Positions 8,746 through 42,001 are shown, counted from the stretch's first letter. The stretch is 64,000 bases of DNA from a virus (IMGVR_UViG_3300037296_000055:1-64000); one strand, 5' to 3'. Numbers and translations are program-made. The notes: generated by a model not told the origin, from the letters alone.

Positions 8746-10908
8746 TTAGCTGAAAGCGAAGTCACTTAGCATGACTTCCTCGATGTCCAGAGTGCCGATT
8801 TCAGGCATTAGGTCCAGAGCACCGAATTGAGTTAGTATCCCCCGGAGAGGATCGGTCTTATAAAGCTCTACGAACTTTTGTCGAACGTGGTAGAACATGT
8901 GGTTCATATTACCAGGCGTACAACCAAAACTGTCATGGATGACAGCGATAGGATACTCCACTGACGCAACCACCGAAGTAAGGTGGGCAGCATCAAGGCT
9001 ATGAATGATGTTGGGTGAAGCAGCGGCACGTTGTGCGGAGCTGTTCAGCGTAGCGTCAAGCCAGGACTCCAGTGTGACCTTGATCTCTTGGTCCGCGAAC
9101 CGGAGTTTCGTGCGCTTGATCTCGGGCTTCTTGTAGCGCTGTGCCACAATGAACCCGGTGACAGAGGTTACCCATGTCATGTATTCCGACCGTTCGTTTG
9201 CACGATCGGCCAGTGTCTCGAACAAGCCAAGCATCCGCGAGGGACCCTTTAGCTCTTCACGACATGTGTCAAAGATTTCTGCTCCGAGCTTTGCGTACCA
9301 GAGTCTCTCGCCACTTGCGATATACTCAGACACGTCAGGAGAGTCGTCAATGATTTGCTGAGAAGCACCGTAGCGCGTCAACCCGTAGCCAAGGGTCATG
9401 GTGTTGCGCTTCGCGATCTTACGCCGCTCCTTGAGGGAGGTCACTCTGTTCCAGAACACCGGGAACAGGGCTTCACGTATTGCGCGGTTATGATTCTTCC
9501 ATTCAGCCAGCTCTTGCCAAGCGTCTGCTTTGGCCTGAGAGCGGTAATCGGCTGTCAAGTAGTTCCGTTCGAGTTGCTCCTGTTGTGCAAGAACTTCGTC
9601 AAATCGGATTAACGTCCCCTGGTCCAGTTCGGCCTCTTGTTGGCCCAAACGTGTCCAAACCAGGCGTGCGACGTAGCTATACAGATCACCAGGTCGTTCT
9701 GAAGGAACAAGGTTGACCAGCCCAGCAAGCTCAGTGTCCCGTGACAAGGCAACAAGGTGTTGTGTCCCGGATACCGTCCCATCAATATAGGTAGGGAGGT
9801 GGCACACGTAATCTTCCGGCGGACCATCATGCTGCGACACTAGCCACAGCTCGAAGCATCCCGCCAGCGTAGACCACGGCTTATCTGAGTTGTGCCAGCC
9901 GGTGTTTACGGTGGGATCTGTCGCGTATCCAAGTAGCTCATCGAAGTGATCCTCTACATATTGTGCTCTGTCATCCAGAGGCAGCTTGTCTTGACCAAGA
10001 CAGTTGGCGATGTGGACGTATAGCCAGTACAGGCCGTTGTCCCCCAGGCGGTCACCCTGGGTCAGGAGGAGCATAGCCTTGCTAAGGTCTGTGCCCATCT
10101 CGTTGAGGTAGGAAGTGTTGTTGTAGATACGACCCCGGAAGTCGCAGTTGTACAGGTGGTAGAAGCTTGCATCTGCGTAGTGGCGGGCCAGCTTGAGGGT
10201 GGAGTTGGTCTCGATCTCCTTGGACGTCTTCCGACGCTGATCGAGCTCCCCTTCAAGATTGATAGGGCTGGGCAGCTCAGGGTTCTGGAGGTAGTACTCC
10301 GCGACCTCAAGCAAGGACTTGTTGATCAGCCAGGGTTGAGCCCCCAGCTTATTCAGGGCCTTGAAGACCATTGGCTGCTTCTCAGGACTGAACTGAGCCA
10401 GCACATCCTTCTCCCCTTTCTTCACGATGGGGAAGCCCAGCGGGTGGTAGCCCGATACCCAGTCACGCGGAGGGACAGCCTTGGGGAACATCTCGACCTG
10501 TCGGGTCTTGATCAGCCCCCAGAGCGAGTCGATGGCCCCTTGATCCGCGATCTCCAGCATGTAGCTGGGGTTTGCATTCTTCTTTTTCTTGGCCTGGTGT
10601 TTGCGTCGGAAGCCAAGAATACCTGCCTCGATGTAGGACACAAGAACGAACCATCCCTGCTGACATGCAGCGATAGCGTCCCGTGCCCAGCCGTATTTCT
10701 GCTGCAGAGAGCGGCCAAGCTTCACCGAGATGGCCACAAGCGACTGGTATTGCTCAATCCCATGGATGATCATGCCGAAGCAGAAGAACAGAACTTCTTC
10801 AGCAGGGGCAGCTTTCATGTCCATCGTATGGATGTGGCGGTCGCTTCGTAATAGTGCTTGACGGCGCTCAAAGTCGCCCACAAGCTTTTCTAGAGTAGTT
10901 GTTGTCAT
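8746..10908 (-). CDS. T7-family single-subunit DNA-directed RNA polymerase (stand-alone, ~720 aa)
   Basis: DFRGRIY, motif A IDGTVSGTQH, motif B RKIAKRNTMTLGYG, PNIIHSLDA, motif C IHDSFG, C-terminal FAFS. Confidence 0.97.
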   Translation of the reverse strand: MTTTTLEKLVGDFERRQALLRSDRHIHTMDMKAAPAEEVLFFCFGMIIHGIEQYQSLVAISVKLGRSLQQKYGWARDAIAACQQGWFVLVSYIEAGILGFRRKHQAKKKKNANPSYMLEIADQGAIDSLWGLIKTRQVEMFPKAVPPRDWVSGYHPLGFPIVKKGEKDVLAQFSPEKQPMVFKALNKLGAQPWLINKSLLEVAEYYLQNPELPSPINLEGELDQRRKTSKEIETNSTLKLARHYADASFYHLYNCDFRGRIYNNTSYLNEMGTDLSKAMLLLTQGDRLGDNGLYWLYVHIANCLGQDKLPLDDRAQYVEDHFDELLGYATDPTVNTGWHNSDKPWSTLAGCFELWLVSQHDGPPEDYVCHLPTYIDGTVSGTQHLVALSRDTELAGLVNLVPSERPGDLYSYVARLVWTRLGQQEAELDQGTLIRFDEVLAQQEQLERNYLTADYRSQAKADAWQELAEWKNHNRAIREALFPVFWNRVTSLKERRKIAKRNTMTLGYGLTRYGASQQIIDDSPDVSEYIASGERLWYAKLGAEIFDTCREELKGPSRMLGLFETLADRANERSEYMTWVTSVTGFIVAQRYKKPEIKRTKLRFADQEIKVTLESWLDATLNSSAQRAAASPNIIHSLDAAHLTSVVASVEYPIAVIHDSFGCTPGNMNHMFYHVRQKFVELYKTDPLRGILTQFGALDLMPEIGTLDIEEVMLSDFAFS

Positions 10909-11056
10909 CAAACCTTTTTCACGGGATGTCACCTAGTGGGTGCCCGTCTATACTGGGGTTTCAGAGATGAGTTTACTCCATTGCTACCTGTCGAAAGACT
11001 TCGAGGAATAGCACAAAGAAGAAAAACCCAATAATAGTAGTAATCCTTAGATCAAA

Positions 11057-16749: not shown

Positions 16750-17385
16750 TTAGTTTTTGAAGTTCTTGCACAGCTGCAGAATTGCAGACTGTACACCCTC
16801 ATCCTCGGAAATACTCTGGATGATGGCAGAGTAGTCCTCACACTCCGACTCGGAAGTCGCGTCTGAGAACATGCCCACTGCATCTGACGTCAGGCCAGAC
16901 ACTGTGGACGCGGTAGCGCTGGCTGCGGAGGATACACCATTGATGGTCCCCGTCACCGCTCCTGACACAGCACCCTTGGTACCGTTCCAGGCTCGACCCA
17001 CAAGACCCTCAGCATCATCAGCGATCTCCTCGACCTCTGATTGTGCATCTTCCAAAGCCTGAGCGGCCCTAAGTTGGGCCAGCTGGATCTTTTGTTCCAA
17101 CAGCAGGTTCAGCGCGTTGTCCTCACGGAGCATCGCACCGATCTCACCCCCCGGAAGTGTGGGAGGAGAGGTCATCTCTTTCAGCTGCCAGATGGCGTCC
17201 TGAAGGTTGTAGCTGGGCGTGAGCTCCAGGTCGTAGGTCGTGACGAACTCAGCAAGCTGCTCTGAGCTCATGTAGCGTTGGTCAGCGAAGCCATCGGCCC
17301 AGCCAACAAGGAACAGTGTGCTTGAAGTTGCAACACCGACAGACAGGCCCAGGACGGCGGCGATAGTTGTGGATTTAGACATCAT
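16750..17385 (-). CDS. membrane-anchored coiled-coil protein
   Basis: N-terminal hydrophobic segment, Ala/Ser/Gly-rich region; RBS AGGAG. Confidence 0.7.
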   Translation of the reverse strand: MMSKSTTIAAVLGLSVGVATSSTLFLVGWADGFADQRYMSSEQLAEFVTTYDLELTPSYNLQDAIWQLKEMTSPPTLPGGEIGAMLREDNALNLLLEQKIQLAQLRAAQALEDAQSEVEEIADDAEGLVGRAWNGTKGAVSGAVTGTINGVSSAASATASTVSGLTSDAVGMFSDATSESECEDYSAIIQSISEDEGVQSAILQLCKNFKN

Positions 17386-17408
17386 AGTCTCCTAAGGTTG
17401 TGTTACGG

Positions 17409-17633
17409 TTATACCGACAGGACTTCGTAGGCTGCGACCACATCAAGCAGTGGCATACCGGAGCCGATGATAACCCAGCGGTTGTTAGGGTGGAAGCGAT
17501 TGCGACGCTTGCACTCAACGTTCAGGAACTCACCGTCTTTGGTGCGGACCCTCAGAGGACCCAGGTTGTTGGGCAGCTCTTTGTTACGTGCATTGAAGTA
17601 AGCGACGGATTTGGAGTTGGTGAAGTTGAACAT
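17409..17633 (-). CDS. hypothetical protein
   Basis: RBS AAGGATACTACT-ATG. Confidence 0.65.
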   Translation of the reverse strand: MFNFTNSKSVAYFNARNKELPNNLGPLRVRTKDGEFLNVECKRRNRFHPNNRWVIIGSGMPLLDVVAAYEVLSV

Positions 17634-17900
17634 AGTAGTATCCTTTCAGGATGTGATGATAGCGAGTCCCCAGGCAATAGCGCCGAGGATCAGGATTAGA
17701 GCGAAGATCGTTTTCTCTTCACGGTCCATCAGTAAGCACTCACGGCGAGGGCCACAACGGTTGTGATCAAGATGCCAAGCAAGTTGACAATCTTATGAGC
17801 ATCATCTCGCCCGAAGGCAACGACGACGACTGTCGCGGGGATAGCAACCATTGCGATTACAGCAGGGGTCATGATAATAGTCCTTATCAAAGTTGTTCTT

Positions 17901-17945
17901 AGAAGATCATTCTTCTATTATAGATACACCGTTTTTCTCACTTTT
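17901..17945 (-). promoter_or_regulatory. putative early promoter, motif E copy 1
   Basis: AAAAGTGAG-N7-GTGTATCTATAATAGAAGAATGATCTTCT; 29-bp core identical in 3 copies. Confidence 0.8.
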
Positions 17946-18192
17946 TTGACTCCATTCTGGTCAGAATGTTGTACTCCGCACCACGCCGAAGACGTAGCCA
18001 GAAGCGCCAAGTCCCCTTTGCAGGACGACGGAGGAAGTAGATGTTGTTGTCAGTGTCGACCAGCACGCCACGGGGGCGTACAGTCTTGATACGGGCGGAG
18101 GTTACCGACGAGTTAGTCCGCGTAGAGTTCCCCGTAAGGAAGATCCCAGCGCCTTTACGACATCGAATAGCGTAGTTATCAACAGCTTCCAT
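17938..18192 (-). CDS. hypothetical early protein (paralog family A)
   Basis: Shares a pattern with 18509-18769. Confidence 0.6.
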   Translation of the reverse strand: MEAVDNYAIRCRKGAGIFLTGNSTRTNSSVTSARIKTVRPRGVLVDTDNNIYFLRRPAKGTWRFWLRLRRGAEYNILTRMESKK

Positions 18193-18509
18193 GTAAACCT
18201 ATCCTCCTTGCGTTTACCGATCAGGTAGTGATCCCGGAAGACCTTGTGCAGGCCGGGATCCAAGAGACCGAACATGAAACCGTAGTACAGTGCCCGTAAG
18301 CCCCGGTCCGGGTGGACCAGCCCCCAACGGGTTCCACGATCATCCACCACGTAGCGCGGGAGATGCCATTCTTTCACGATCACAGGCTTCTTGCCCAGGG
18401 GCTCAACAAAGTAGTATATTGAGGTCTTCCCAAAGAACTCTACCCTAGATCGTTCACCACGAAGCTCCTTCTTAAAGGGATCGTAGTAGTAGTCATCCAG
18501 TAAGGGCAT
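18102..18509 (-). CDS. hypothetical early protein (possibly family A)
   Basis: Start MPLLDD; VDDRGTRWGLVHP. Confidence 0.55.
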   Translation of the reverse strand: MPLLDDYYYDPFKKELRGERSRVEFFGKTSIYYFVEPLGKKPVIVKEWHLPRYVVDDRGTRWGLVHPDRGLRALYYGFMFGLLDPGLHKVFRDHYLIGKRKEDRFTWKLLITTLFDVVKALGSSLRGTLRGLTRR

Positions 18510-18769
18510 CACAACAACCCCTGATGTTTGAGTTCCGCGTACCACGCAGGCTCTTGATAGCGCAGCTTATAGCGCCACATGATGCCGAACGAGGGCCGCT
18601 GAAGGAACCACCAATCAGAGTGGTCGTCGTACACCGACATCGCGTTACCGATGGCGGCGATGGGAGAGGAGGTTATTGGCGACCCCTCCCAAAAGCCCGA
18701 AAGGATAAGACCGGGTCCTGAGTTCAAAGCCAGGAACCGATAGTTATCGATCCAGATCTGTGCCATCAC
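18509..18769 (-). CDS. hypothetical early protein (paralog family A)
   Basis: Tiles in operon. Confidence 0.6.
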   Translation of the reverse strand: MMAQIWIDNYRFLALNSGPGLILSGFWEGSPITSSPIAAIGNAMSVYDDHSDWWFLQRPSFGIMWRYKLRYQEPAWYAELKHQGLL

Positions 18770-19164
18770 TCGATACCAAGCAACAGTTTCTTCAGGACCA
18801 TCAGGTCGCCATGAGCAACCTCAGAGTCCAGATCCGACACACGGTCAACGAGCTCGGCATGCTCCTTGGCCCAGGCCGTTTCAACAAAGTAGATGTCACC
18901 ACCCTCGTTGGTTGTTCCGACGAAGAAATAGATGTAAGTCCCATCCTTCGTGGCACCGCAGTTGTCCAGGACCCACTCATGCGAGTAGTCCGAGTAGAGC
19001 GCCTCGTCCAGCGCTTCCCAGTCTTCAGGACCGTCCAGGATGCACAAGTCGCCCCCCATTGCTGCAGGTAGATCTTCGTTCTGGCCCAGGTCCTCGAAGT
19101 AGCTGGCGACCAGAGCACGGATTGCGAACTCGGGGACTTGCTCAAGTTTGGTGTAACGCTGCAT
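18766..19164 (-). CDS. acidic hypothetical early protein
   Basis: Tiles in operon. Confidence 0.7.
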   Translation of the reverse strand: MQRYTKLEQVPEFAIRALVASYFEDLGQNEDLPAAMGGDLCILDGPEDWEALDEALYSDYSHEWVLDNCGATKDGTYIYFFVGTTNEGGDIYFVETAWAKEHAELVDRVSDLDSEVAHGDLMVLKKLLLGIE

Positions 19165-19166
19165 GA

Positions 19167-19373
19167 TCAGGACTCGACTTTCTGGAAGAACAGGACGTTG
19201 GTCTGGAAGAACTCCAGCGATTGGGTCGTGATGACATAGTTAGTGCCAGGATTGAAGATCTCATCCAGTCGGTCAGAGTCCAGGCGAACCTGGGTCATGC
19301 GGTGGTACGGTGTGACCAGGTCTCCGATAGCGAGCTTGGAGTCTTGGTTCAGTGGTGTCGTCGATCCCATCAT
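19167..19373 (-). CDS. hypothetical early protein
   Basis: AAGGAG RBS. Confidence 0.6.
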   Translation of the reverse strand: MMGSTTPLNQDSKLAIGDLVTPYHRMTQVRLDSDRLDEIFNPGTNYVITTQSLEFFQTNVLFFQKVES

Positions 19374-19524
19374 AGGGCTCCTTCGTTATTGTTGTTGTTG
19401 GCTTCTTCGGCCAGGATTGCTTCCCAACGGCATTTCTTTGTGAACCAGTGGGAGGTATACATCGCTCCTGCCAGGACAAGGACGATGATCGATACGGTAA
19501 GATAAGTCATTGGGAAGTTCCTTA

Positions 19525-19758
19525 TTAGGGGTTAGCGAGCCGCAGCTCGTGAGGGTAGCGGTTGAACAGTTCTTGGCTCCAGCTGGTGGAGTACTGTCCG
19601 ACCTTGTTGCCTTTGTTGGAGCCAGACATCAGGCAGACGCCATGGCGACGTTCGTGGAACAAAACCACTAAACCATTCTCCGGAATGTAGCCCAGCCACG
19701 GGTACTTGATAGGTTCTGGTAGAGGCGGGTCTCGCAGGATACGGGTGATCATGATCAT
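19525..19758 (-). CDS. hypothetical early protein (paralog family B)
   Basis: GGAGG RBS; YPWL...ELRLAN. Confidence 0.65.
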   Translation of the reverse strand: MIMITRILRDPPLPEPIKYPWLGYIPENGLVVLFHERRHGVCLMSGSNKGNKVGQYSTSWSQELFNRYPHELRLANP

Positions 19759-19829
19759 ACGCCTGCCTCCTTCAATTGTAGCTGATGTCCTTGTGGCATC
19801 GGCATCTCCTTTTTTTTTTTCCTTTAGAG

Positions 19830-20072
19830 TTACGTACGAACGTTGCTCATGGTCACAACGTCATCGGTCAGGTCCCAGTACTGGTGCTGGAGAGTCTTGA
19901 TCACCGTCCCTACCTCCTGGCAGGTAGCGCTGACACCTTGGGCCACAACAACATACTCGCCGTTGTTGGTGGCCATGACCACAGTCTCATGCTTACGATG
20001 CCGCATCAGATACGGACGCTTTGGGACCTTGCCTGTGGGGGCGGGGGGTAGGCTTGTGCTCACTATAGGCAT
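19830..20072 (-). CDS. hypothetical early protein (paralog family B)
   Basis: RPYLM...VTMSN. Confidence 0.6.
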   Translation of the reverse strand: MPIVSTSLPPAPTGKVPKRPYLMRHRKHETVVMATNNGEYVVVAQGVSATCQEVGTVIKTLQHQYWDLTDDVVTMSNVRT

Positions 20073-20073
20073 C

Positions 20074-20409
20074 TCAGATCCCCACATTCACGATCACACG
20101 GACACACTGCTCAGGGTTGCCCTCGAACAGACGATCGATCAGTGTGGCCTCACCGGTCCAGCAGAGGTTCTGCCAGAACTGAAGTGGTTCCTTCGTCCCT
20201 TTCGGGGTGAAGACGAGACCCAGCATGAACTCTTCAGGCTCAACACACTCGATCGTGTGCGTGGTGCTGGTGAACGGAACAAAGTCATCACAGCTCAGGG
20301 GGGCCGGGGCCTCAAAGTTTGAGAAGGACACCTCAGGGACAGTACCAGCGTCAAGACCTGGAAGTACGGTCATCACGAACATGATAGTGCTAAGTGTTGT
20401 GGACATCAT
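20074..20409 (-). CDS. hypothetical, possibly secreted protein
   Basis: AAGGAGG RBS; hydrophobic N-terminus, 4 Cys. Confidence 0.6.
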   Translation of the reverse strand: MMSTTLSTIMFVMTVLPGLDAGTVPEVSFSNFEAPAPLSCDDFVPFTSTTHTIECVEPEEFMLGLVFTPKGTKEPLQFWQNLCWTGEATLIDRLFEGNPEQCVRVIVNVGI

Positions 20410-20692
20410 AGTCCTCCTTGAATTTGGCCCTGTCTTTGTAAGGGCCATTGATGGGTATGGAACCGGTGAACTTGAGCATCAACGGGAAGTTGTACTCAGA
20501 GTGCAGCCAGCAGTGATGCTTCTCCGACCAGGTTCCGTAGAACGTGTGGCCGTGGAAGTCGAGGTGCATTGGGCCCCAGTGACGTGGGATCCAAGCATTT
20601 TCATAGTTGTACTCAGCGAGTTTTTTCTCGGAGACAACGTGGTGGAAGAGCCAAGCTTTACGCTTGACCCAGGACCAGAGTGAACCGGTCAT
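20390..20692 (-). CDS. hypothetical early protein
   Basis: Tiles in operon. Confidence 0.55.
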   Translation of the reverse strand: MTGSLWSWVKRKAWLFHHVVSEKKLAEYNYENAWIPRHWGPMHLDFHGHTFYGTWSEKHHCWLHSEYNFPLMLKFTGSIPINGPYKDRAKFKEDYDVHNT

Positions 20693-21294
20693 CCAGCCAT
20701 CGATCCTAACAGGAGCGTGGTATCCTCAGCCTTGACCCTTGCCTCAAGGACCTGAGGGTCTTCTGCCTTCCGTACCAGCACACACCAGTCTTCCGGCGCG
20801 TGGAGCAGGATGGTCTTGCTCGCGTCTTCACGATAGAGACCTGCCTTCTCATCCCAGCTTGCGCTGATCGAGCGACCGTCAGGCATTTCCACCATGATCT
20901 CCGGGAACTTGTGCTTGCAGAAGCGATCCCAGGAGCCCTGGATATCAAGGCCAAGATCATCGTCCACACCCAGCAGCCGTTCATCCCGGACACTTGGCTT
21001 TGCGGAGATGTCGACCCAGCGGTTAGGGACTAGGCCAACAAGGTGGTGAGGGTGGTTTGCGAAGCGATACGCATTCCAGGTGTTGTCCCACTCAAGCACG
21101 TGGGGCTCGCCACTCCCTGGGAACTGAACAACCACACGACGACACTTCCTTCCACAGAAGTTCATCCAGGCCAGGTCAGTGTCCACAGCGTCTTCAGCGA
21201 GCTGAGCTTCAGCAAGCTTCTGCAGGGTCTTACGACCGAACACGACAGACAGTAGCAAGAGGGAGAATAGTAGGGGGAAGAAACCATTGTTCAT
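20689..21294 (-). CDS. membrane-anchored early protein with two internal repeats (family C)
   Basis: N-terminal TM; WMNFCGRK and WDRFCKHKFP repeats. Confidence 0.7.
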   Translation of the reverse strand: MNNGFFPLLFSLLLLSVVFGRKTLQKLAEAQLAEDAVDTDLAWMNFCGRKCRRVVVQFPGSGEPHVLEWDNTWNAYRFANHPHHLVGLVPNRWVDISAKPSVRDERLLGVDDDLGLDIQGSWDRFCKHKFPEIMVEMPDGRSISASWDEKAGLYREDASKTILLHAPEDWCVLVRKAEDPQVLEARVKAEDTTLLLGSMAG

Positions 21295-21328
21295 CACAGA
21301 ACTCCTTATGGTAGGTTGGGTTGGGTTG

Positions 21329-21649
21329 TTATACGTTAGCCGCAGCTTCACCGATCAGGTGGTAGGTCAGGTTAGCGGCACCGGGATAAGCCTCACGGGC
21401 CAGCTCTTCTGACGTGTAGAGGACCGTGCTGTAGACGTTGCTGCCCCGCATGATGATCCAGCTCTCCTTGACCTCGGTGTCGCTGACGGAAGTCGCCACT
21501 GCTAGAGAACGGAACTCGCCAGGAGTTCGCTCAGACTCCTTGACCAACCGGCCAGAGGTCTGAGAAATCATGATCCGGCGACCACTGTTCATGGTGTGGA
21601 TCACGTCGAAATTGGCGATGTAGCCGCCGGTGCTTCTGAGCTTAACCAT
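21329..21649 (-). CDS. hypothetical early protein
   Basis: Start MVKLRS. Confidence 0.55.
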   Translation of the reverse strand: MVKLRSTGGYIANFDVIHTMNSGRRIMISQTSGRLVKESERTPGEFRSLAVATSVSDTEVKESWIIMRGSNVYSTVLYTSEELAREAYPGAANLTYHLIGEAAANV

Positions 21650-22058
21650 TGTCAGACACCGGAACATCAGTGGTGGAGCCCTTGAAGTCGACATCAGGGA
21701 TGACCGACTGCGGACGGAACACGACCTTGTAGTGGTACTCGGACACGTCGATAGCATCGATCTGTTCGGCAAAGTAGGTCACGTTGTCAGAGAGACCCAG
21801 GTAGTGTTTCTTGTACTCGTCAGGGCCGACCTTGCAGGTGACCTTCAGGCTGGTGCCGATGTCCAGAGAGCACTTACCCTCGACCACCAGGATGTACGAG
21901 TCGGTGATACCGTTGTAGAACACGATACGCCGTTCAACACCGAAGTTCGATGCGGACTGCGACAGGTTGCGTGAGGCCACTGAGGCAGCATCATCACAGG
22001 CGACCAGAGCGGCCAGAGCGAGCAGGGCAATGCCTGCGTTACGAAGGATCTTCTTCAT
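21642..22058 (-). CDS. conserved phage lipoprotein
   Basis: Signal peptide with lipobox LVAC; RRIVFYNGIT...KKHYLGLSDNVTYFAEQ...YHYKV. Confidence 0.85.
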   Translation of the reverse strand: MKKILRNAGIALLALAALVACDDAASVASRNLSQSASNFGVERRIVFYNGITDSYILVVEGKCSLDIGTSLKVTCKVGPDEYKKHYLGLSDNVTYFAEQIDAIDVSEYHYKVVFRPQSVIPDVDFKGSTTDVPVSDNG

Positions 22059-22432
22059 TTGTAGGACTCTTTCTTTTCCAGTAGAGCATTGAGCTCTTGT
22101 TGATTTTTAGAAGGTGGTCTCGACACGATATCAAACCCCGATGGGATCTGAACTGCTTCAAAGCGGTATGGAGCCTTCGAGAGGTACCTATGACTGTAGG
22201 AGTCATAACCGTCTAGGCGAGGGACCCACATCCACAGGACAGGGTCACAGGTCTTTGTTTCCCACACAAGCACCAGGGGGTGTTTGCGGGTCTGGAACTT
22301 TGCCCACACTTCTTTACGTGTGCGGTATTCCTCGGCCTTCTTCATCTCCAAGAGTTTATACTTGAAGATCTGCTGTCGGATCCAGAGGAAGACGTACAGG
22401 ATGATCAGCAGTGTCCACAGAGCAGCTTCCAT
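22055..22432 (-). CDS. membrane-anchored early protein (family C)
   Basis: N-terminal TM; WAKFQTRKHP. Confidence 0.65.
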   Translation of the reverse strand: MEAALWTLLIILYVFLWIRQQIFKYKLLEMKKAEEYRTRKEVWAKFQTRKHPLVLVWETKTCDPVLWMWVPRLDGYDSYSHRYLSKAPYRFEAVQIPSGFDIVSRPPSKNQQELNALLEKKESYK

Positions 22433-22433
22433 C

Positions 22434-22784
22434 TTACAGGTTACCTCCACGGATGTTGAGCCAGCTCGGAAGTGGGATGTGCTCCCAACGGTAGGGCACC
22501 CGTGTTAGGGCATGGCCGTCGTAGTCCTGGTAGTTGCCGATGGCCACGTTCCAGTAGTAGTGCTCGGGATCAGAAGCCCCGTAGAGCCTGATCTCGATGA
22601 TCGGATGACGGTGCTTACAAAACGTCTTCCAGTTGGCAGCACGTTCTTCGTCCCTCCGTACCTCCGCCCGACGCTCTTCAGCCTCGGACAGTCGGTGTAG
22701 TGTGAGGATGATCCAGAACAACACTGCAAAGAACAGCAGCATCATGGAACCTACCACAAGGTTTATCAGGGTAAGGTCTGTCAT
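22434..22784 (-). CDS. membrane-anchored early protein (family C)
   Basis: N-terminal TM; WKTFCKHRHP. Confidence 0.7.
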   Translation of the reverse strand: MTDLTLINLVVGSMMLLFFAVLFWIILTLHRLSEAEERRAEVRRDEERAANWKTFCKHRHPIIEIRLYGASDPEHYYWNVAIGNYQDYDGHALTRVPYRWEHIPLPSWLNIRGGNL

Positions 22785-22829
22785 CTCACGTTCCTTGTAT
22801 CAAGACTGGTGATGGCGAGTCGCTGGGGC

Positions 22830-23192
22830 TCATGACCCCTTCCCCTCTTTGATGTACCATCCCTCTGTCTGGGACAGTTTGAGGCCAGGGATCCGAATAC
22901 CGGCAATCTCCAACGCGGCAAACTGCTCAGCCCGGAACCGGTTGAACTCCATCCGCTTCTGCAGACGGGGTATCCAGTCAGGAACCAACATCATGGAGAA
23001 GAGGACATCCCCGAACTCCTCGATGATCCGAGCAGTGCCCTCCTGGTTGTCGATTGACTCTCCGAGCTCTCCCAGTTCCTCATCAAGCTTACGACGAGCG
23101 TAGCCTGCCTTACCCAGCCGAGCCTTGCGCTCCTCCTGGGCCTTGCTGAAAGTATAGAGATCCTTGAGGAACTCTTTGTTGAAAGTGTCCAT
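22830..23192 (-). CDS. second MazG-like protein
   Basis: KLDEELGELGESI...IIEEFGDVLF. Confidence 0.75.
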   Translation of the reverse strand: MDTFNKEFLKDLYTFSKAQEERKARLGKAGYARRKLDEELGELGESIDNQEGTARIIEEFGDVLFSMMLVPDWIPRLQKRMEFNRFRAEQFAALEIAGIRIPGLKLSQTEGWYIKEGKGS

Positions 23193-23301
23193 AGTGGGTT
23201 GTACTCCATCAAAGGTGTGTGTGTGTTAGGTAGTGTGGGGTGAGGGCTTTAGCCTCGTTGTCATCGTGTAACCTCATGGGGTTAGAGTTCTTTGTTGGGT
23301 T

Positions 23302-23346
23302 AGAAGATCATTCTTCTATTATAGATACACCCTTTTCCTCACTTTT
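23302..23346 (-). promoter_or_regulatory. putative early promoter, motif E copy 2
   Basis: Same bipartite motif, intergenic. Confidence 0.8.
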
Positions 23347-23351
23347 CTGGG

Positions 23352-23588
23352 CTATTTCCGGGAGTTCCGCAGGACCACCTTGCCGAAGTAGTTCCGCCAG
23401 TGTGGGCCCTCAGCATCCTCCCGCTTGTAGTGGTTGAAGACCTTAGGGAGCGTCAGAGCCTCCGCAGGGGACACCCAGAGCACGAGTCCTGACAGCTTGT
23501 TGAACATGTGCAAGATGCTACCGTCCGGGGTCACCTTGAGGCAGGGGTAAGGTGTTAGGCTGACCTTCAGCTTGACCTTGACGCTCAT
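23352..23588 (-). CDS. hypothetical early protein (paralog family B)
   Basis: YPCL...VVLRN. Confidence 0.6.
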   Translation of the reverse strand: MSVKVKLKVSLTPYPCLKVTPDGSILHMFNKLSGLVLWVSPAEALTLPKVFNHYKREDAEGPHWRNYFGKVVLRNSRK

Positions 23589-23932
23589 CCCAGGAACCTC
23601 CCCAGAATGGTCACATGACGGAGTTCGATCTTTTCGATCGTGTGGACCCCCTCTTGCCCGTGAGGTACTAGGTCGGAGAAGATGTCCAACTCCTCCTCGG
23701 TCAGGGTGGGATACACACTCTCACGGGTCTCACCACCACGGAAGTGGCCCCAGTTGTACAGGTGTGGTTGGTTTACGGAACGCTCCCGGATCAGGTCTGA
23801 GACCTTTTGCACGAGGGCAAGAGTCTCCAGTCCCTCCTTGTTGTCCGGTATCACGGTCTCCTGGGTCACGTAGTCCGCATCGTTCTCGTCGGCTTTCACC
23901 AGAAGGAAAGTCTGTGTTGTCTTGTCGCTCAT
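23585..23932 (-). CDS. hypothetical early protein
   Basis: Start MSDKTT after GGAG; ADENDADYV. Confidence 0.7.
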   Translation of the reverse strand: MSDKTTQTFLLVKADENDADYVTQETVIPDNKEGLETLALVQKVSDLIRERSVNQPHLYNWGHFRGGETRESVYPTLTEEELDIFSDLVPHGQEGVHTIEKIELRHVTILGRFLG

Positions 23933-24270
23933 GTTGTGGGGTTCTCCGTGGTTGTGGGGGTGGGGGTGGACCTGGCGCCGGTGCTGTACCAGGCCCAGGC
24001 CGTAGCAGCGTCCTCGAAAGAAATGGCCGACTCCGGACACTGCCGTAGCCCGTGGGCCTTCTTGAACAGGAGCAGGAGGTAGGCCAACTGTTGGAACTGC
24101 TGGAGGGTATTGACCTCACCGTGCAGGAACAGGTTGATGTGGTTCTCAGGATCGCCCTCGGCAGGTACGAGGGGCTCGCGGGTGTAGGCGTAGTAGCCTC
24201 CCCCGAACAGACCGCCCTGGTCGAAGTAGAGGAACAAACGTCGTGGTGTGTCTTGGCTGATGCTGGTCAT
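23929..24270 (-). CDS. hypothetical protein, first gene of the early arm
   Basis: GGAG RBS directly downstream of motif E copy 3. Confidence 0.65.
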   Translation of the reverse strand: MTSISQDTPRRLFLYFDQGGLFGGGYYAYTREPLVPAEGDPENHINLFLHGEVNTLQQFQQLAYLLLLFKKAHGLRQCPESAISFEDAATAWAWYSTGARSTPTPTTTENPTT

Positions 24271-24312
24271 GGTGTAGGTTACTCCATCAAAGGTGTTGTT
24301 GTTGTTGTGGTC

Positions 24313-24357
24313 AGAAGATCATTCTTCTATTATAGATACACTAAATTCCTCACTTTT
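24313..24357 (-). promoter_or_regulatory. putative early promoter, motif E copy 3
   Basis: Same bipartite motif at the head of the leftward arm. Confidence 0.8.
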
Positions 24358-24368
24358 TACCACGTTTC

Positions 24369-24390
24369 TACCAGGGGACGTTATATGATA
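24369..24390 (+). promoter_or_regulatory. putative late promoter, motif L copy 1
   Basis: TACCAGGGGACGTTATATGATA, identical in 3 copies. Confidence 0.78.
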
Positions 24391-24414
24391 TAGGAGTCCC
24401 AAAACCGGTAGTTT

Positions 24415-24436
24415 TACCAGGGGACGTTATATGATA
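24415..24436 (+). promoter_or_regulatory. putative late promoter, motif L copy 2
   Basis: TACCAGGGGACGTTATATGATA. Confidence 0.78.
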
Positions 24437-24716
24437 AGGGTGCCTCGGTTCCCTCATCGGTGGTCCTGACCATCAAGATAAATCAGGCTCTGTGACCAGA
24501 CTCTTAGGGTAAGGTATCAGAAGAAGTATCTAAGCTCCACGGGGCGAGGGTCTGCCGAGGGTCACCTGAATGACAACTTGGTAAGGCGGGATGACTCAGC
24601 AGAGAGTTGTCCGAGGGAAGTAATGTCAGGTCTACTGTTACCCCGGTCCCCCTCCTTTATGATACTTCTTCTGATGCTTTACCCAGTAGAGAGGGTCATA
24701 TAGGATGTCCGAGGCT
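24437..24716 (+). ncRNA. candidate rod-like structured RNA or late 5' leader
   Basis: 24-bp stem 24507-24530/24661-24684 with two G-U pairs, plus nested flanking stems. Confidence 0.5.
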
Positions 24717-24974
24717 TATGAAGTAACCTCCTCATTCATCCTTCATCATCCATTCCTATACTACATCCTTCATCATACATCATCACCACACATAAGGTAA
24801 TACACCCACATGACTTACTCCACATACTTCGCCGGTGCCAACTCTGCTCCAACAGCCAGCGTTGCACCTGATGAACAACAACAACCCAACACCACAACTA
24901 AACAACCTATCACCAGCTACTCCGAGTACTTCGGTGAAGCGGTGAAAACCATGCTGAAATAAGGAAACCTGATC

Positions 24975-25382
24975 ATGGCACGAGGACTCGACGAAAAAGA
25001 CATCGCTAAGGTGACGAAGCAAGAGAAGGGTAAACGGCTCGGAGGTCGTCCCAAAGGGGGCAAGAACCGGTTTAACTGGAACGCTGTACGCCAGATGGAA
25101 GATGCCGGGTTCGACCCCATTGAGAAGATGATGGAGCTCTATCTGATCCTCCATGAAGAGATCGTGGCAGTCCGTGAGCGGGAGGGTAAACTTACCTACA
25201 CCAGCTCCAGTCTTGTCACCTCAGCACGACAGATCCTTGAGACTCTGGCCCAGTATGGCTACCTCAAACGTCGTCCTGATATCGAAGATCCTGAAGCGAT
25301 GGATCCCCTGTCGATCAAGCTTGTGCTGGTCCAGGAACAACCACGGGTGAAGGCTGAGCCTGACCCTAGCACTGAGGAATAA
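24975..25382 (+). CDS. putative terminase small subunit
   Basis: LGGRPKGGKNR motif, size, position upstream of TerL. Confidence 0.75.
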   Translation: MARGLDEKDIAKVTKQEKGKRLGGRPKGGKNRFNWNAVRQMEDAGFDPIEKMMELYLILHEEIVAVREREGKLTYTSSSLVTSARQILETLAQYGYLKRRPDIEDPEAMDPLSIKLVLVQEQPRVKAEPDPSTEE

Positions 25383-25390
25383 TAAGCATA

Positions 25391-25699
25391 ATGACCATCC
25401 GCCTGATGATACGCCAACCTGACTGGGACGAGCAGACGTTCGTTCCCTTCGACTATGATATTGGTGATGAGGACACGGAGACGAAAGCTCTGGAGCTGTT
25501 CCAACAACGTAAGCCAGGACCGCTGGACCGTCGTGTACAGAAAGACTTTTCGAAGCTGTTCCCTGAGGGTCTCTGGGTGGTCAGTGGCATGATCATGGAG
25601 TTTGATGATGACGGTTATCCGTTGTTTGACCATGACGAAGATACGGGTGAGCGGATTATCCCTGACCCTGTAGAAATTCATAAAGGATACTTTCACTGA
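25391..25699 (+). CDS. hypothetical protein
   Basis: GAGG RBS; tiles. Confidence 0.65.
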   Translation: MTIRLMIRQPDWDEQTFVPFDYDIGDEDTETKALELFQQRKPGPLDRRVQKDFSKLFPEGLWVVSGMIMEFDDDGYPLFDHDEDTGERIIPDPVEIHKGYFH

Positions 25700-25851
25700 T
25701 GAGTAGTAGTAATACAACTGTAAATAAATCAGGCACCTACGCCGCTCTTGCTGCGGGCTTCGTGTTCTGTGTGGGCTATGTTGTGGGCAAAATTGCTCAG
25801 GGCATGATCCTTGGCATCGGGGTGGCTATTACCCTGCACCTACTGGGCTAG
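25699..25851 (+). CDS. small membrane protein (50 aa)
   Basis: Manual translation MSSSNTT...AALAAGFVFCVGYVVGKIAQGMILGIGVAITLHLLG; TGATG coupling to the upstream ORF. Confidence 0.55.
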   Translation: MSSSNTTVNKSGTYAALAAGFVFCVGYVVGKIAQGMILGIGVAITLHLLG

Positions 25852-26106
25852 AGCGCCAACCTCTGACACCAGAGGATAGTACCTCCCCCACCACCATCAC
25901 TCCCCCCATCCTCAAGGAGACTTCTACTGCTATGGCACACTCTCATGCACCATTGTACAGTGAAAGCGAGGTGATCCGGTATCTCCAAGTACGTCTCTAA
26001 AGGACACTACTTGGTCAAGGTGCCGAGCCGTTCCTCTAACGTTGATCCGGCACACCCCCACTCGTCTCTACCCCCATCATAACAACCCCCTTGAAAGAAC
26101 CACATC

Positions 26107-26280
26107 ATGTTTAAAGATAACACACCTGTAGAAGAAGTCGTAGTCGCCAAGACCGCCGCTGTTGCACCCAAGCGCTCCAAGGAAGTCCTTGACGCTGTTG
26201 ATGTTGTGACGCGTGAGCTGTCTGACATTCCTGGTGGGGATAACATCTCCAACCACATCCGAGCCTTGCTGGAAGTGTAA
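26107..26280 (+). CDS. hypothetical protein (57 aa)
   Basis: Manual translation MFKDNTPVEE...; ends 6 nt before TerL. Confidence 0.55.
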   Translation: MFKDNTPVEEVVVAKTAAVAPKRSKEVLDAVDVVTRELSDIPGGDNISNHIRALLEV

Positions 26281-26286
26281 CACACC

Positions 26287-27642
26287 ATGCCCACCGTAGA
26301 ACTTCACCGAGCTCAGTCAGAGATTGTCTATGACATGTTCGGACCCAATCCTGAGTGGACCCTCCGCTACGGCGTTGTTGTTGGCTCACGAGGGTTGGGG
26401 AAGTCCTACGTTGCGGCAACCTCAGCTGTCATGGCCATCGCAGAGCTGGAAACCCTCCCCTCTTCTGTTCCCAATAAAAACATCAGCTTGATTTGTGGGT
26501 CAAACCAACAGGTTGCTGACGTTTATCTTCCTCTTTTCAACTTCGTCTACGGACTAGACCACCCACGACGCTGTGTCAAGCACACGACAGCCCTTGGCCA
26601 GGTCCGCTGGACTTTCAAGAACGGCACCACGCTCTCCCTACGCTCGGCAGAAGTCGCTGAACGGATGCGGGGCACAGGCCAGTACATGGTGATCCTTGAC
26701 GAGATGCCCACCTGGGAACTCAAAGGCTCTAACCACGAGACGGTCTGGGAGTCGATCATCAACCCCACAATCACCACCCGTTGGTCCCCTGAACAAGCCA
26801 CCGCTGTTGGAGCTCCTAGCCCCGGTCGCGCTCTGTTCATCGCCTCGCCCCTCGGCAAGGACTACTTCTACGAGCTCTCCATGAACACTATCGTGGATCC
26901 TCGCTGGAAGACCCGTCAGTATACCTATCGCGACTCTCCTCTGCTGTCCCAGAAGACTATCGAGGAAGAGAAGAAATCCATGGACCCCATGCGGTTCGCC
27001 CGAGAGTACGAGGCCTCCTTCGAAGAGTCTGGTGCTCGTGTCTACCATTCGTTCGATCGTGTTATGCATGTTGAGAAAGACTTGGCCCCCTTCGGAGAGA
27101 CCGAGACTGTCCATGCCGCTATCGACTTCAACGTTCTGAAGAACTGCACAAGCTTCCATGCCATCCGTGGTGGCCAAATTCACACACTGGAAGAGTCCAT
27201 TGGTACAGCAAATACTCAAGAGCTTGCGGAGCTTATCCGTCGTCGCTTTCCTAAGAACAAGATCATCTGTTACCCTGACCCCTCAGGAGTTGCAAGAAAG
27301 ACTTCCGCTGTGGTTGGAGTCACCGACTTTAGTATCCTACGACAGGCAGGCTTCGAAGTTCTAGCAAAGTCTAAGGCCCCTGGTATTACCGACTCTGCCA
27401 ACGCTGTGAACAGGATGTTCCTGAACGCTGCTGGAGAGACCAACTGGTATGTCGCTCCTGTCTGCACCCACTTCATCAAGTCTCTGGAACGTACTGTGTG
27501 GCTAGAGAGCCGCCCTGACTCGGCCATCATTGACAAGTCTCTGGACGTGGAACACTTCGGCGACGGTGCTCGCTACTTCGCTGAGTACATGTTCCCCGTA
27601 AACTCCTATCGTACAGCAACCAAGAGAGGCTTTGTGTTCTGA
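26287..27642 (+). CDS. terminase large subunit
   Basis: Walker A GSRGLGKS, Walker B VILDE, nuclease IDFN, YPDPSG, EHFGDGARY. Confidence 0.95.
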   Translation: MPTVELHRAQSEIVYDMFGPNPEWTLRYGVVVGSRGLGKSYVAATSAVMAIAELETLPSSVPNKNISLICGSNQQVADVYLPLFNFVYGLDHPRRCVKHTTALGQVRWTFKNGTTLSLRSAEVAERMRGTGQYMVILDEMPTWELKGSNHETVWESIINPTITTRWSPEQATAVGAPSPGRALFIASPLGKDYFYELSMNTIVDPRWKTRQYTYRDSPLLSQKTIEEEKKSMDPMRFAREYEASFEESGARVYHSFDRVMHVEKDLAPFGETETVHAAIDFNVLKNCTSFHAIRGGQIHTLEESIGTANTQELAELIRRRFPKNKIICYPDPSGVARKTSAVVGVTDFSILRQAGFEVLAKSKAPGITDSANAVNRMFLNAAGETNWYVAPVCTHFIKSLERTVWLESRPDSAIIDKSLDVEHFGDGARYFAEYMFPVNSYRTATKRGFVF

Positions 27643-37259: not shown

Positions 37260-40200
37260 ATGGAAAATCAAGACATCTTCGATCGGCAGGTAGACCACCT
37301 GATCCGCACTCGTATGTTCACCGAAGAGCTTCAGAACAAAGTCTCGTCCATGTCCGAAGGGCATCGTCGTAGTCTCCTGAACATCTTCCGTACTGGACGA
37401 CCGAGTGAGATCCGCCTGGAAGTCAACCGCTACGTGGAGGAAATGAAGTCCTCCATCCGTGGTGGTATGACCGACTACCTTGGAGCGGAGATCTCTTTCC
37501 AAAAGTCAACAGCTCAGCGTTCTGTGGGGAGCTTCTATTCCCTGCAGGATGTTGACCGTGGCAAGGTGGCCAACCGGCTGCTGAACCAGCCTATCACCTT
37601 CTCGCAGACTTCCTCTGTAGGGACAGGCATCCTTCCTTCCCTGGATGCCATGGCCCCTGCCCAAACCTCTCGCCTGAACACCGTGATCCAGAAGGGTCTG
37701 TTGGAAGGCAAGTCAAGGGCCGAGATCGAAGCCTCTCTGCTGAAGACCACCAAGCTGACCGAGAACCAGGCCCGCACCCTGGTCACCACCGGTATTACCC
37801 ATGCGCAAGAATTGACCACCCAAGAGTTCTGGGACGCTAACCCTGATGTTCTGTCAGGCTTCGTCTACACAGCAATTCTGGATGGTAACACCACTCGCAC
37901 CTGCGGCTCCTTGGATGGCACTGTGTTCCCTGCGGATGCTGTCACCCATCGCCCACCCCTACACTGGAACTGTCGTTCTAGTCTGGTGCCTGTCCTGAAG
38001 GACTACGACGCTCTGGTTGCCACTGACAGCCCACGCGTCACACAAAGCGCCCTTGCTGACATTCCTCCGAGCAGGTTCAATGGCCAACCACCACTCCGCG
38101 AGAACTTCGAAGAGTGGTTGCGTCGTCAGCCCTTCAAGCGACAACAATCCTTACTCGGCTCCGAAGATGCTGCCACTCTGTTCCAGAACGGTACGCTCCG
38201 GATGAACGAGTTCTTCACTAAGCTGAAACGTCCTATCTCTATCGGCCAACTCCGCACACTGGATGCCAAGTCCACCTTCTCGTATTCAAAAGACTCTCTG
38301 GATGCTAAGGTACGTGTTGCGGCCACCCGTCCTGCAGATCTTGTTCGTAGCCCTGGCTTGGCCAAAGATCTAAAGGCCCTAATTCTGGCGGACGCCCGAG
38401 ATGCCTCTCAGTCAATTTCTCTCACTGACTATCGCGGTGTTACCCTTGGAGGTAAGCGCAGCGTACGTCGTGCTACTTACAATGAGTACGATCCTCGCAA
38501 CCACCAGTATGATCCCTACACCGGCGAGGTTAGAAGTTCATACTACTACAACCCCGACTATGTCTTACTTACAGAGCGCCTTGATGTTATCCAACGATCC
38601 CAGGTACTCTCCAAGCCCCAACGAGAATGGATCACGAAGTTCGTAAACTCTCTGGAGGATGACGTCTCCGTGAACCAGCAGTCCGTGATTGCTGAGACAC
38701 TACGTCTTACCTTCGAGCGTGCTGCCCGTGACACCTCCATGGGCTGGAGCGACTATGCCGGTGTTTTCCGGGCCGAGTCCAAGTTTGGTGTGACCAACGT
38801 CTCCCGTATCCTTGACCGACGCTCTCGTGCCGGTGACGAGATGTTCACCCGCTTTGCTGATGTTGATGAGCCTGCCGCTATCCAGATCCTGGGTGAGTGG
38901 AAGACCTTTGAAGACCTCACTTCTAATCGGAACCGGAACCAACAGTTCATTAGGGACTGGGACAAGCAAGAGGGCCGCGCTCTGGCACGGAGGGTATACT
39001 ACGGGCGTGCAGTTGACCTTGCGAAGGGTCGTGTAATAGACGCTCCTGGTGCTCCCACACGGGCCTATTTGCTGGGCCTCCGTCCGAAGGTCAAAGGACC
39101 TAACAAGGACATTGTCAAGTGGGTCGAGGCCAACATCCCTGGCATCAACACTTTCAAGTTCGGAGCTCTGAAGGGCTCTAACACTGTGGCTGGCTGGATC
39201 GAGTCGGTCCCCGGAGTGAAGCAGTGGAACTCGTTCATGAAGGAATGGGCTAAGCCTTACGATCCGATCCTCTACCGTCTGAAGAATGGACTGAGTGCCA
39301 AGGTACGTAACATCCTTGACCTTGAGTTCCTGAAGATGAGTGACCGACGTGGTCTGGTTGACCGCTTCATAACTTCCCGAGTTCTTGGGGACAACGAAGA
39401 CATTCAGGTGCTGCAGAAGGTGATGAAGACCATCGCCGGAGGGACCATGACTGACTATGACGGTCTTGCCATCACCATCGGTAAGGAACTGTACAAGCAG
39501 TATCGCCCTCTCCGTCCCTGGTACAAGCCTACTCTGCAAGACTACCACCGGGATGGTGCGGGTATCCTTGAGTCTCTCCGTGAGAACGGTACGCTCCGAG
39601 TGATGTCCCGTGGCGTGAACCGTCGTGGAGTTCTTGACCTTGATACAGGTCGTGTAGGACCACCTTTCCGAGACACCGTGTCCCGTGAGGTGACCATCCT
39701 TGATAAGGACCTGGTTCAGCTCCAGCGAGCTAACCGTGAGATCATCGTTGCTGACCGTGTGGGTATCACAGGTCCCTCCAACGAGTATCACGTTCGTGTG
39801 GGTAAGAAAGAGTACTTCGACGCTTACGGCAACAACACTGGTCGTTCTGTGATCACCAGGTCTGCAGCGCCGTTCTACGATGAGAACCTGATCGATAAAG
39901 ACTTCGCTGACATGCTCAATCATACCATGTCTTCCAAATACCAGACCGATAACGACTTCTCCCGGTTCATGCTGGACCTTGCCCGCTTCCGCGATGTTCG
40001 TGGTCGTGTGGACTACTATGACGACCTCAACCTGTTCCGCCACGACATCATCAAGCGAGGAGAGCAAGGCTTTGGGCTTATGGAAACTGTAAAGTTCCAC
40101 AATGCTCGACAGAAGCCCTTCTCCGTGATGGCTCGTATCGACGGTCGAGGCCGTGTCTACTACAATGGCTATCTGACCCCCACAGGCGGTGAGATGGTCC

Positions 40201-41803: not shown

Positions 41804-41825
41804 TACCAGGGGACGTTATATGATA
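41804..41825 (+). promoter_or_regulatory. putative late promoter, motif L copy 3
   Basis: TACCAGGGGACGTTATATGATA upstream of scaffold/capsid genes. Confidence 0.8.
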
Positions 41826-42001
41826 GGGGTGGAGTATTTATGCTCCCCCCTGCCCCCGGTTGATCGATGCTGATGATCGAAACTTCATCATTCATCCTTC
41901 ATTCCTCCCCCAAGATTATCTAATGATGATAATCATGAAACCCTTCCTTGGGACTGTGTCCCTAACCTTGTCAATAGCTGTGCTACTGGAGAACTACTAC
42001 T

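Follow-up and report, generated by a model that had tools for sequence, protein, structure and literature searches.

A bipartite DNA element, which we refer to as E, occurs three times in the early region of a salt-lake phage and very probably serves as a promoter. The window analysed here comprises bases 1–64000 of the 82.5-kb IMG/VR virus record IMGVR_UViG_3300037296_000055, which derives from a salt-lake metagenome and has a 127-bp terminal overlap; the phage is a long-tailed relative of roseophage DSS3_VP1 (VP1 below) of the Naomviridae. E is likely to be read by a phage polymerase rather than by the host RNA polymerase (RNAP) with σ70. As its reader we favour, with somewhat less assurance, MuF-RNAP, a fusion of a MuF head-protein domain to a single-subunit RNAP, in which case transcription would start at the purine that follows TATAAT and the RNA would open with a protective 5′ hairpin. 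We give about an even chance to the broader proposition that E belongs, as cognate promoter, to a new kind of virion polymerase, a T7-fold single-subunit RNAP fused to MuF; its promoter would be bipartite and read as a duplex, with two helical turns between the boxes and possibly with deoxyuridine (dU) in place of thymidine (dT).

The 29-mer GTGTATCTATAATAGAAGAATGATCTTCT has three exact matches, all on the minus strand (17901–17929, 23302–23330 and 24313–24341). When up to three mismatches were allowed, no extra site was retrieved (100 shuffles gave an expectation of 0), and the rest of the 82.5-kb genome contains no fourth copy even at 8 of 29 or 12 of 38 mismatches. In each copy AAAAGTGAG is located 7 nt upstream of the 29-bp core, and the three 7-nt spacers differ (AAAAACG, GAAAAGG and GAATTTA). 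An earlier reading made by a model from the same DNA (the sequence-only reading below) had described three bipartite minus-strand copies with an identical core and a spacer constant in length and variable in sequence; both descriptions are exact. The inverted repeat AGAAGA-ATGA-TCTTCT that it pointed out is present as well and is the minimum-energy fold of all three leaders. Its placement of the core in intergenic DNA holds in general, with a minor exception in copy 1, whose AAGTGAG distal box contains the TGA stop codon of the open reading frame (ORF) 17938–18192. Copy 2 begins 6 nt past the stop codon of ORF 23352–23588. Copy 3 stands back-to-back, with 12 nt between, with rightward promoters of a second putative class, L, which is described below. 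Coordinates of the copies, their boxes and the predicted transcription starts are given in Table 1.

Conservation of E reaches far beyond this genome. A repeat survey of VP1 and two 57–59-kb IMG/VR relatives (GC content 35–47%) recovered the element, which reads AAAAAGTGAGAAAACTAAGGCATCTATAATGA at positions 35792 and 36239 of VP1 (MN602266) and AAAAGTGAGAAAAATGACGTATCTATAATGAAGAAA in G001 and G002 (G numbers denote genomes of our collection), although the proteins of these phages are just 40–45% identical. An IMG/VR scan with the form of our own genome, AAGTGAG-N7-GTGTATCTATAATA, returned no match, and a looser anchor was needed. The pattern AAAGTGAG-N11-ATCTATAAT was found in at least 119 IMG/VR contigs, with one to four copies each at a median of 407 bp apart; a motif scan in related phages had been suggested as a check in the sequence-only reading. 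The GC content of E-bearing phages spans 35–55%. Once one coding false-positive class had been removed, 125 unique exact sites remained. A relaxed scan of the same loci yielded 128 exact, 25 one-mismatch and 10 two-mismatch unique sites (about 160), all at spacing 11; variants with one or two changes, such as AAACTGAG, TATAGT and TATAAC, always kept this spacing, and matches at other spacings were noise or came from these sites read with a shift. The consensus is aAAAAAGTGAGaAAa-N6-G(c/t)ATCTATAAT, then RRWANAAT, with a distal box AAAAAGTGAG(A/G)AAA and a proximal box G(C/T)ATCTATAAT. Since strictly 11 nt lie between AAAGTGAG and ATCTATAAT, the two boxes are about two helical turns apart. The base after GYATCTATAAT is a purine (G in 85% and A in 15% of sites), as is the next one, and A occupies positions +6 and +7 past TATAAT in 87–89% of sites.

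We also searched 185,579 bacterial and archaeal species genomes (596 Gb, one genome per species) for the E pattern with four extra bases fixed. Just one mis-binned phage contig and one chance coding match were retrieved. E is therefore a phage element and not a bacterial promoter type. In the deeper relative G029 all three copies read CCCTCTATAAC and thus end in TATAAC, and in its close relative G035 all three have TATAAT.

The hairpin that follows TATAAT was surveyed at the 125 unique sites as the longest perfect stem of at least 4 bp with a loop of 3–11 nt. In 69 of them (55%, vs 3.4% in shuffles) the stem begins exactly at the first base past TATAAT, while offsets 1–6 account for at most two sites each and a second class of 14 sites starts at offset 7. 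The 5′ arm takes 13 distinct forms, among them GATAC, GATAAA, GATATA, GAACGA, GAACT, GAACC, GATAGA, GGAAA and the AGAAGA of this genome; all five stem pairs vary on both sides, and the loops, of 3–8 nt, differ even among copies of one genome. Non-Watson–Crick stem pairs are few, with three that are G-U-compatible on the sense strand and no A-C. No conserved sequence was found 3′ of the stem. Selection acts on the structure of the hairpin, not on its sequence. As 31 of the 125 sites, VP1 copy a among them, have no stem that reaches 4 bp, E can be recognised without the hairpin, and because the spacing of its half-sites is not fixed, a dimeric operator is unlikely. By its exact register, the hairpin is coupled to the 3′ edge of the conserved block. 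Read most simply, the RNA would begin at the purine after TATAAT and fold into a blunt 5′-terminal stem-loop. Such stem-loops protect mRNA from 5′-end-dependent decay, as in ompA and the T7 phi10 leader.

The location of E is that of an early promoter. A Shine–Dalgarno sequence, a start codon and an ORF are present downstream on the same strand at 107 of 113 E sites, at a median distance of 48 nt. E was mapped in eleven genomes (our own, VP1, G001, G002, G007–G010 and the deeper relatives G029, G035 and G036). In all eleven, every copy is on the strand of the gene for a second, stand-alone RNAP, 1.7–16 kb upstream of this gene, and heads the early arm; none of the copies in these genomes is found ahead of structural genes. 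In many genomes the first copy comes directly after a terminator, and in our genome, as in G008, the early arm begins where the two arms diverge. Seven E-bearing genomes are rated at least 90% complete, and each of them encodes MuF-RNAP as well as the stand-alone RNAP. The arrangement matches that of a relay, with an early class upstream of the gene of a second polymerase (11 of 11 mapped genomes) that has a distinct class of its own, L. The view of the sequence-only reading that the motif is a promoter is thus strongly supported by family-wide conservation, fixed spacing, the position at the head of the early arm, and a ribosome-binding site (RBS) and ORF about 48 nt downstream.

In our genome, leftward genes extend from ca. 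24.3 kb, via the record start, to ca. 57.6 kb, and rightward genes from ca. 24.4 kb to 57.5 kb. The rightward arm codes for terminase, portal, the 1506-aa MuF + RNA_pol fusion, capsid proteins, a 2348-aa tape measure and tail proteins; the leftward arm consists of small orphan ORFs followed by the stand-alone 728-aa polymerase, whose gene lies downstream of all three E copies on their strand. The closest cultured relatives are roseophages DSS3_VP1 and DSS3_PM1 (Naomviridae, with dU-DNA; PMC8323127), at ca. 40% identity over the full MuF-RNAP, and a megablast of positions 17000–25000 against GenBank phages gave no match. VP1 grows on Ruegeria pomeroyi DSS-3; its MuF-RNAP is gp28 and its stand-alone RNAP gp56.

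MuF-RNAP combines an N-terminal MuF minor-head domain with a C-terminal, divergent single-subunit RNAP of the T7/mitochondrial type. Its sequence match to T7 RNAP is very divergent (E-value 0.007). For a model of the C-terminal 800 residues, with a predicted local distance difference test (pLDDT) score of 65, the top Foldseek matches are T7 and mitochondrial RNAPs (E-value 1e-15), and N4 mini-virion RNAP (mini-vRNAP) is absent among the top matches listed; a PHROG scan gave just a weak match to the N4-like RNAP family. The MuF-RNAP gene is placed within the head module. MuF is a portal-associated head protein, and it has been suggested that its fusions enter the host cell (PMC5512222). From the MuF fusion and the position in the head module we infer that MuF-RNAP would be present in the virion and injected. 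Between MuF and the polymerase core, residues ~350–550 form a conserved segment with 39–51% identity to relatives and the invariant strings SRILDRRSR and SVNQQ, followed by a poorly conserved linker (residues ~551–700); the conserved segment is a candidate binder of the distal box.

The stand-alone RNAP is presumably the product of E-driven transcription and the reader of L. It is close to T7 RNAP (E-value 1e-61), which fits the contiguous, G-starting L, just as the far greater divergence of MuF-RNAP fits the atypical promoter E. With its gene located behind E, this enzyme cannot be the one that initiates the programme. L is probably its promoter. Each L copy is contiguous, with a G-run that follows TACCAGGGGACGTTATATGATA. 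Relatives carry TTTACCAGGGGACGCTAAAGAGAGA (G002), AAATAGGGCGGAATAATGA (G029) and, in ca. 15 copies spread over the replication and structural genes of VP1, ATAGGKKRCGTTAAAGA followed by GGGGGA. Directly after the third L copy of our genome, a hairpin (41826–41850, z = −3.2) folds from the first base, and the VP1 copies are followed by GGGGGA...TCCCC stems. As L promoters are also directly followed by a hairpin, a promoter block with an immediate 5′ hairpin is a habit of the family.

The mechanism that we propose is as follows. MuF-RNAP would be carried in the capsid via its MuF domain, delivered with the DNA, and would read E from the starts given in Table 1, with the AT-rich TATAAT acting as the melting region, like the TATA of T7-class promoters. 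The RNA would start RRWANAAU, and at most copies it would fold at once into a blunt 5′ stem-loop (here AGAAGA-AUGA-UCUUCU) that would shield early mRNAs from 5′-end-dependent decay, like those of T7 phi10 and ompA, and would have no role in promoter recognition. Transcripts from E would span the small orphan early genes and extend to the gene of the stand-alone RNAP, and the latter would then read L ahead of replication and structural genes. MuF-RNAP had been named as one of two alternatives for the reader of E in the sequence-only reading; this stands as the best-supported assignment (E is absent from bacteria and lies upstream of the second RNAP gene, the hairpin is in register, and the change to TATAAC is concerted), and we hold it as an inference.

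It appears unlikely that E is a host σ70 early promoter of the T7 A1–A3 kind, in which TATAAT would be the −10 element, transcription would start at the A located 6–7 nt downstream, the distal box would be UP-like or bound by an injected helper, and MuF-RNAP would have another task. TATAAT is perfect in all copies of our genome and in nearly all family copies, positions +6 and +7 have a conserved A, the layout of two boxes around a fixed spacer is σ-like, the distal box is A-rich, and clustered copies that head an early region recall T7 A1–A3. However, the −35 hexamer at a 17-bp spacer would be AAAAGT, with one of six matches to TTGACA, ATC and not TGn is ahead of TATAAT, and a consensus scan of positions 17000–26500 called none of the three E sites and no minus-strand site at all, in agreement with the earlier description of E as a poor σ70 promoter that has TATAAT and neither a TTGACA-like −35 nor TGn. 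The distal box is invariant over GC contents of 35–55% and probably different hosts, yet it is absent from the 185,579 species genomes. The last T of the σ70 −10 element is among its most critical bases, and position −1 of T7 promoters, which the last T of TATAAT would occupy in a T7-type reading, is tolerant. TATAAC is found in all three G029 copies and in others, a concerted change at what would be −7T. With a start 6–8 nt past TATAAT, the covarying hairpin would be divided in two, and its exact register would have no explanation. E agrees with σ70 promoters in only one of the properties tested, the −10 hexamer, and departs from them in −35/TGn, in the keeping of the last T and in occurrence in host genomes. 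In DSS3_VP1 DNA, dU replaces dT (PMC8323127), and transcription in other dU phages, AR9 for example, relies on virion and non-virion polymerases of the phage itself (PMC5449584), which also speaks against σ70. The variant offered by the sequence-only reading, a host promoter with a phage operator, is disfavoured along with it: −35 and TGn are missing, the palindrome differs between phages, and even in a single genome its spacing varies, as would be incompatible with a dimeric repressor.

The remaining explanations fare worse. The stand-alone T7-like RNAP might itself read E, for example as a self-amplifying early/middle class, with MuF-RNAP reading elsewhere or starting non-specifically. This enzyme co-occurs with E as tightly as MuF-RNAP does, and the proximal box with its GAAGAA start resembles the SP6 promoter end CTATA-GAAGAG, which we treat as a lead only. 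Its own gene, though, lies downstream of E in 11 of 11 mapped genomes and has no other promoter class ahead of it; the sole candidate is a weak L-like site within a gene in VP1, and the minus strand here has no σ70-like site, so that the enzyme would have to pre-exist the transcription of its own gene. Moreover, a close T7 relative is matched most naturally with the contiguous, G-starting L, of which VP1 has ca. 15 copies. We regard this possibility as improbable. Highly improbable, in our estimate, is that E is no promoter and instead a site at which RNA is processed or regulated, or to which a phage regulator binds, repeated before early cistrons. Copies 1 and 2 of our genome do lie between genes of one apparent operon, and the hairpin could be the target of an RNase or a protein. 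However, ~30 nt of primary sequence are invariant and their spacing is fixed, and no upstream transcript would reach the first copies, which are often right after a terminator or at the divergence point of the arms; the register of the hairpin is bound to the end of the conserved block, and the conserved part is AT-rich and unstructured, unlike an RNA motif. The least probable explanation is that of an N4-type promoter, in which a hairpin extruded from supercoiled DNA would be the recognition element and the start would be 3′ of it. Three copies near the head of the early region, as for N4 P1–P3, an inverted repeat and a suspected virion RNAP speak for this analogy, which the sequence-only reading had raised. 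It does not survive the family comparison, as the conserved blocks are upstream of the hairpin with nothing conserved 3′ of the stem, the stems are AT-rich and free in sequence with loops of 3–8 nt, and about a quarter of sites (31 of 125) have no stem of at least 4 bp; the polymerase model, for its part, matches T7 and mitochondrial RNAPs, and N4 mini-vRNAP is not among the top matches listed.

Several points weigh against the assignment of E to MuF-RNAP. TATAAT is a perfect −10 hexamer, and a conserved A is present at +6/+7, where a σ70 start would fall. The conserved box ~22–30 bp upstream of the start is beyond the known footprint of T7-type enzymes and has no known precedent among them. 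No DNA-binding module for the distal box can be demonstrated in MuF-RNAP because the model of the linker region (aa 340–720) has a pLDDT of 51. E co-occurs equally with MuF-RNAP and with the stand-alone RNAP, and no natural genome with only one of the two polymerases was found; a search for the stand-alone RNAP without MuF-RNAP gave fragments and ~43-kb genomes (RNAP 30–31% identical) that are without E and MuF-RNAP alike. Distant MuF-RNAP phages G030 and G031 (~30% identity) have no recognisable E. A count of covariation in a fixed register (5+4+5; 98 ungapped sites) was marginal, with 44.7% paired vs 40.9% and 5–6 of 500 shuffles as high; since loop lengths vary, the loop-free analyses are preferred. 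The DSS3_VP1 paper (PMC8323127) reports no virion proteomics and no mapping of transcription or promoters, and no RNA sequencing run containing the region was found, the sole matching run being the probable source DNA run.

Among known systems, E resembles the early promoters of relays from a virion to a non-virion RNAP (N4, P23-45, AR9/phiKZ). Thermus phage P23-45 has a virion RNAP, fused to its tape measure, that reads AT-rich promoters ahead of pre-early genes; one of these genes encodes a second, non-virion RNAP, which reads GC-rich promoters (PMC10770324). Several features are shared: both phages are long-tailed, one of their virion structural proteins is fused to a polymerase, the first genes, among them that of the second polymerase, are headed by an AT-rich motif, this second polymerase has its own GC-richer promoter class, and the motif co-occurs with the fusion in relatives. 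However, the P23-45 polymerases are two-barrel, cellular-type enzymes and those here are single-subunit and T7-type; the fusion partner is the tape measure there and a MuF head protein here; and E is bipartite, with a fixed spacer and a 5′ hairpin after it. The P23-45 assignments come from chromatin immunoprecipitation sequencing (ChIP-seq) and cappable-seq, whereas those of E are predictions from sequence.

With T7/SP6-class promoters E shares near-identical copies within a genome, an AT-rich stretch directly before the (predicted) purine start and, as in SP6, a conserved initial transcribed GAAGAA; a 5′ stem-loop would open the transcript, as in T7 phi10, and the phage encodes two T7-fold polymerases, MuF-RNAP and the stand-alone RNAP. 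The differences are that T7 promoters are contiguous from −17 to +6, whereas in E positions −17 to −12 are free and a second box lies at ca. −30 to −22, and that E is conserved across phages whose polymerases are ~40–50% identical. In N4 promoters, conservation extends from −17 to +1; a GC-rich heptamer is centred at −11, and the hairpin has a 5–7 bp stem and a 3-nt loop (PMC4496689). With N4 P1–P3, E has in common the few copies that head the early region, the inverted repeat, a presumed virion-borne single-subunit RNAP as reader and a polymerase relay; the N4 hairpin, however, is a recognition element upstream of +1, and that of E is downstream of the conserved block, variable and dispensable. 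Like the 5′ stem-loops of ompA and T7 phi10, the hairpin of E is a short stem at or within a base of the predicted 5′ end, with its structure kept and its sequence not. It differs from them in that the 5′ end is a prediction here and the AA at the start of the loop (+6/+7) is unusually conserved. This AA may be needed for initiation and not for the hairpin.

According to published reports, Naomviridae-like phages are abundant at sea and infect roseobacters and possibly SAR11, with dT replaced by dU (PMC8323127, PMC12669031). In the literature that we searched on MuF-RNAP, on Naomviridae transcription and for the motif strings, no promoters or transcription programme are described; the present analysis contributes the conservation of E throughout the family, its fixed spacing, the hairpin register with its covariation, the lack of E in bacteria, the rule for its position and the concerted change to TATAAC. 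A ~35-bp promoter that is near-invariant in more than 100 contigs of marine and salt-lake phages offers a defined in vitro template for MuF-RNAP, E can serve as a sequence tag that shows where the early region begins in incomplete metagenomic contigs from the Naomviridae-like family, and its covarying 5′ hairpins form a natural series for the study of phage mRNA protection. If MuF-RNAP does read E, E would be the first defined promoter of a MuF-fused RNAP, and a T7-fold enzyme would recognise a bipartite promoter without the help of accessory factors; MuF-RNAP, the stand-alone RNAP and L would then make an abundant marine family fully independent of host RNA polymerase, and MuF-RNAP and E would constitute a new orthogonal polymerase–promoter pair.

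Table 1. Predicted promoters, associated features and polymerase genes (positions refer to the window unless indicated; G000 is the full record)
Feature	Position	Strand	Remarks
E copy 3 (predicted promoter)	24313–24357	−	first of the leftward early arm
E copy 3, distal box AAAAGTGAG	24349–24357	−	
E copy 3, proximal box GTGTATCTATAAT	24329–24341	−	
E copy 3, predicted +1 and hairpin	24313–24328	−	+1 at A24328; AGAAGA-ATGA-TCTTCT
E copy 2 (predicted promoter)	23302–23346	−	distal box 23338–23346, proximal box 23318–23330
E copy 2, predicted +1 and hairpin	23302–23317	−	+1 at A23317
E copy 1 (predicted promoter)	17901–17945	−	distal box 17937–17945, proximal box 17917–17929
E copy 1, predicted +1 and hairpin	17901–17916	−	+1 at A17916
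First early ORF behind E copy 3	23929–24270	−	113 aa, no family match
First ORF behind E copy 2	22830–23192	−	120 aa, weak MazG-like match
L, two tandem copies (probable promoters, TACCAGGGGACGTTATATGATA)	24369–24390, 24415–24436	+	divergent from E copy 3, facing terminase genes
L, third exact copy in the window	41804–41825	+	ahead of scaffold/capsid genes
L, copy outside the window	G000 74160–74181	−	
MuF-RNAP fusion	37260–41780	+	1506 aa; Pfam MuF and RNA_pol; PHROGs; Foldseek
Stand-alone T7-like RNAP	8746–10932	−	728 aa; phmmer E-value 1e-61 to T7 RNAP; position

The leaders of both promoter classes contain further repeats. An exact 17-nt leader/RBS block, ACACCTTTGATGGAGTA, precedes the first ORFs behind E copies 3 and 2 (24280–24296 and 23202–23218, minus strand). 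The leader of copy 1, which is followed 44 nt downstream by the start codon of a 47-aa hydrophobic ORF, carries CTTTGATAAGGA, and many relatives share the leader ACCAAGTGGAAACCAAGAGGA instead; these blocks may be conserved translation-initiation signals for early genes. Downstream of L, the leaders have exact 15–16-nt repeats, ATGCTCCCCCCTGCCC at 41840–41855 (plus strand) and G000 74131–74146 (minus strand), and TCATTCATCCTTCAT at 24732–24746 and 41888–41902.

In the deeper clade, E sites are located at 59825, 61099 and 63067 of G029 (minus strand) and at 11750, 14238 and 15469 of G035 (plus strand). Their form is (A)AGTGGGG / AACTGGGG ... CCC(C)TCTATAA(C/T), followed by GAAGAAA; they are without a 5′-terminal hairpin and have instead a conserved AGTCTT-GAA-AGGACT stem that overlaps the RBS. 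The first 50 kb of EBPR siphovirus 1, which has a MuF/RNAP homologue of ~30% identity, are without CTATAAT or an E-like repeat. VP1 has a third site (MN602266, position 67795) with the proximal half alone (CACGCATCTATAATGAACC), right after a terminator and ahead of gp104, which may be a weaker or differently timed promoter without a distal box.

Two observations concern other genes. Outside the window, G000 67218–67616 (minus strand) codes for a homologue (44% identity) of the DSS3_VP1 dCTP deaminase (Dcd), an enzyme of the dU-DNA pathway; a YfbR-type dTMP phosphatase was not found in this phage. In G008 (IMGVR_UViG_3300042323_000705), the large terminase gene (47709–49064) stands alone on the plus strand within the minus-strand early arm, far from the portal gene.

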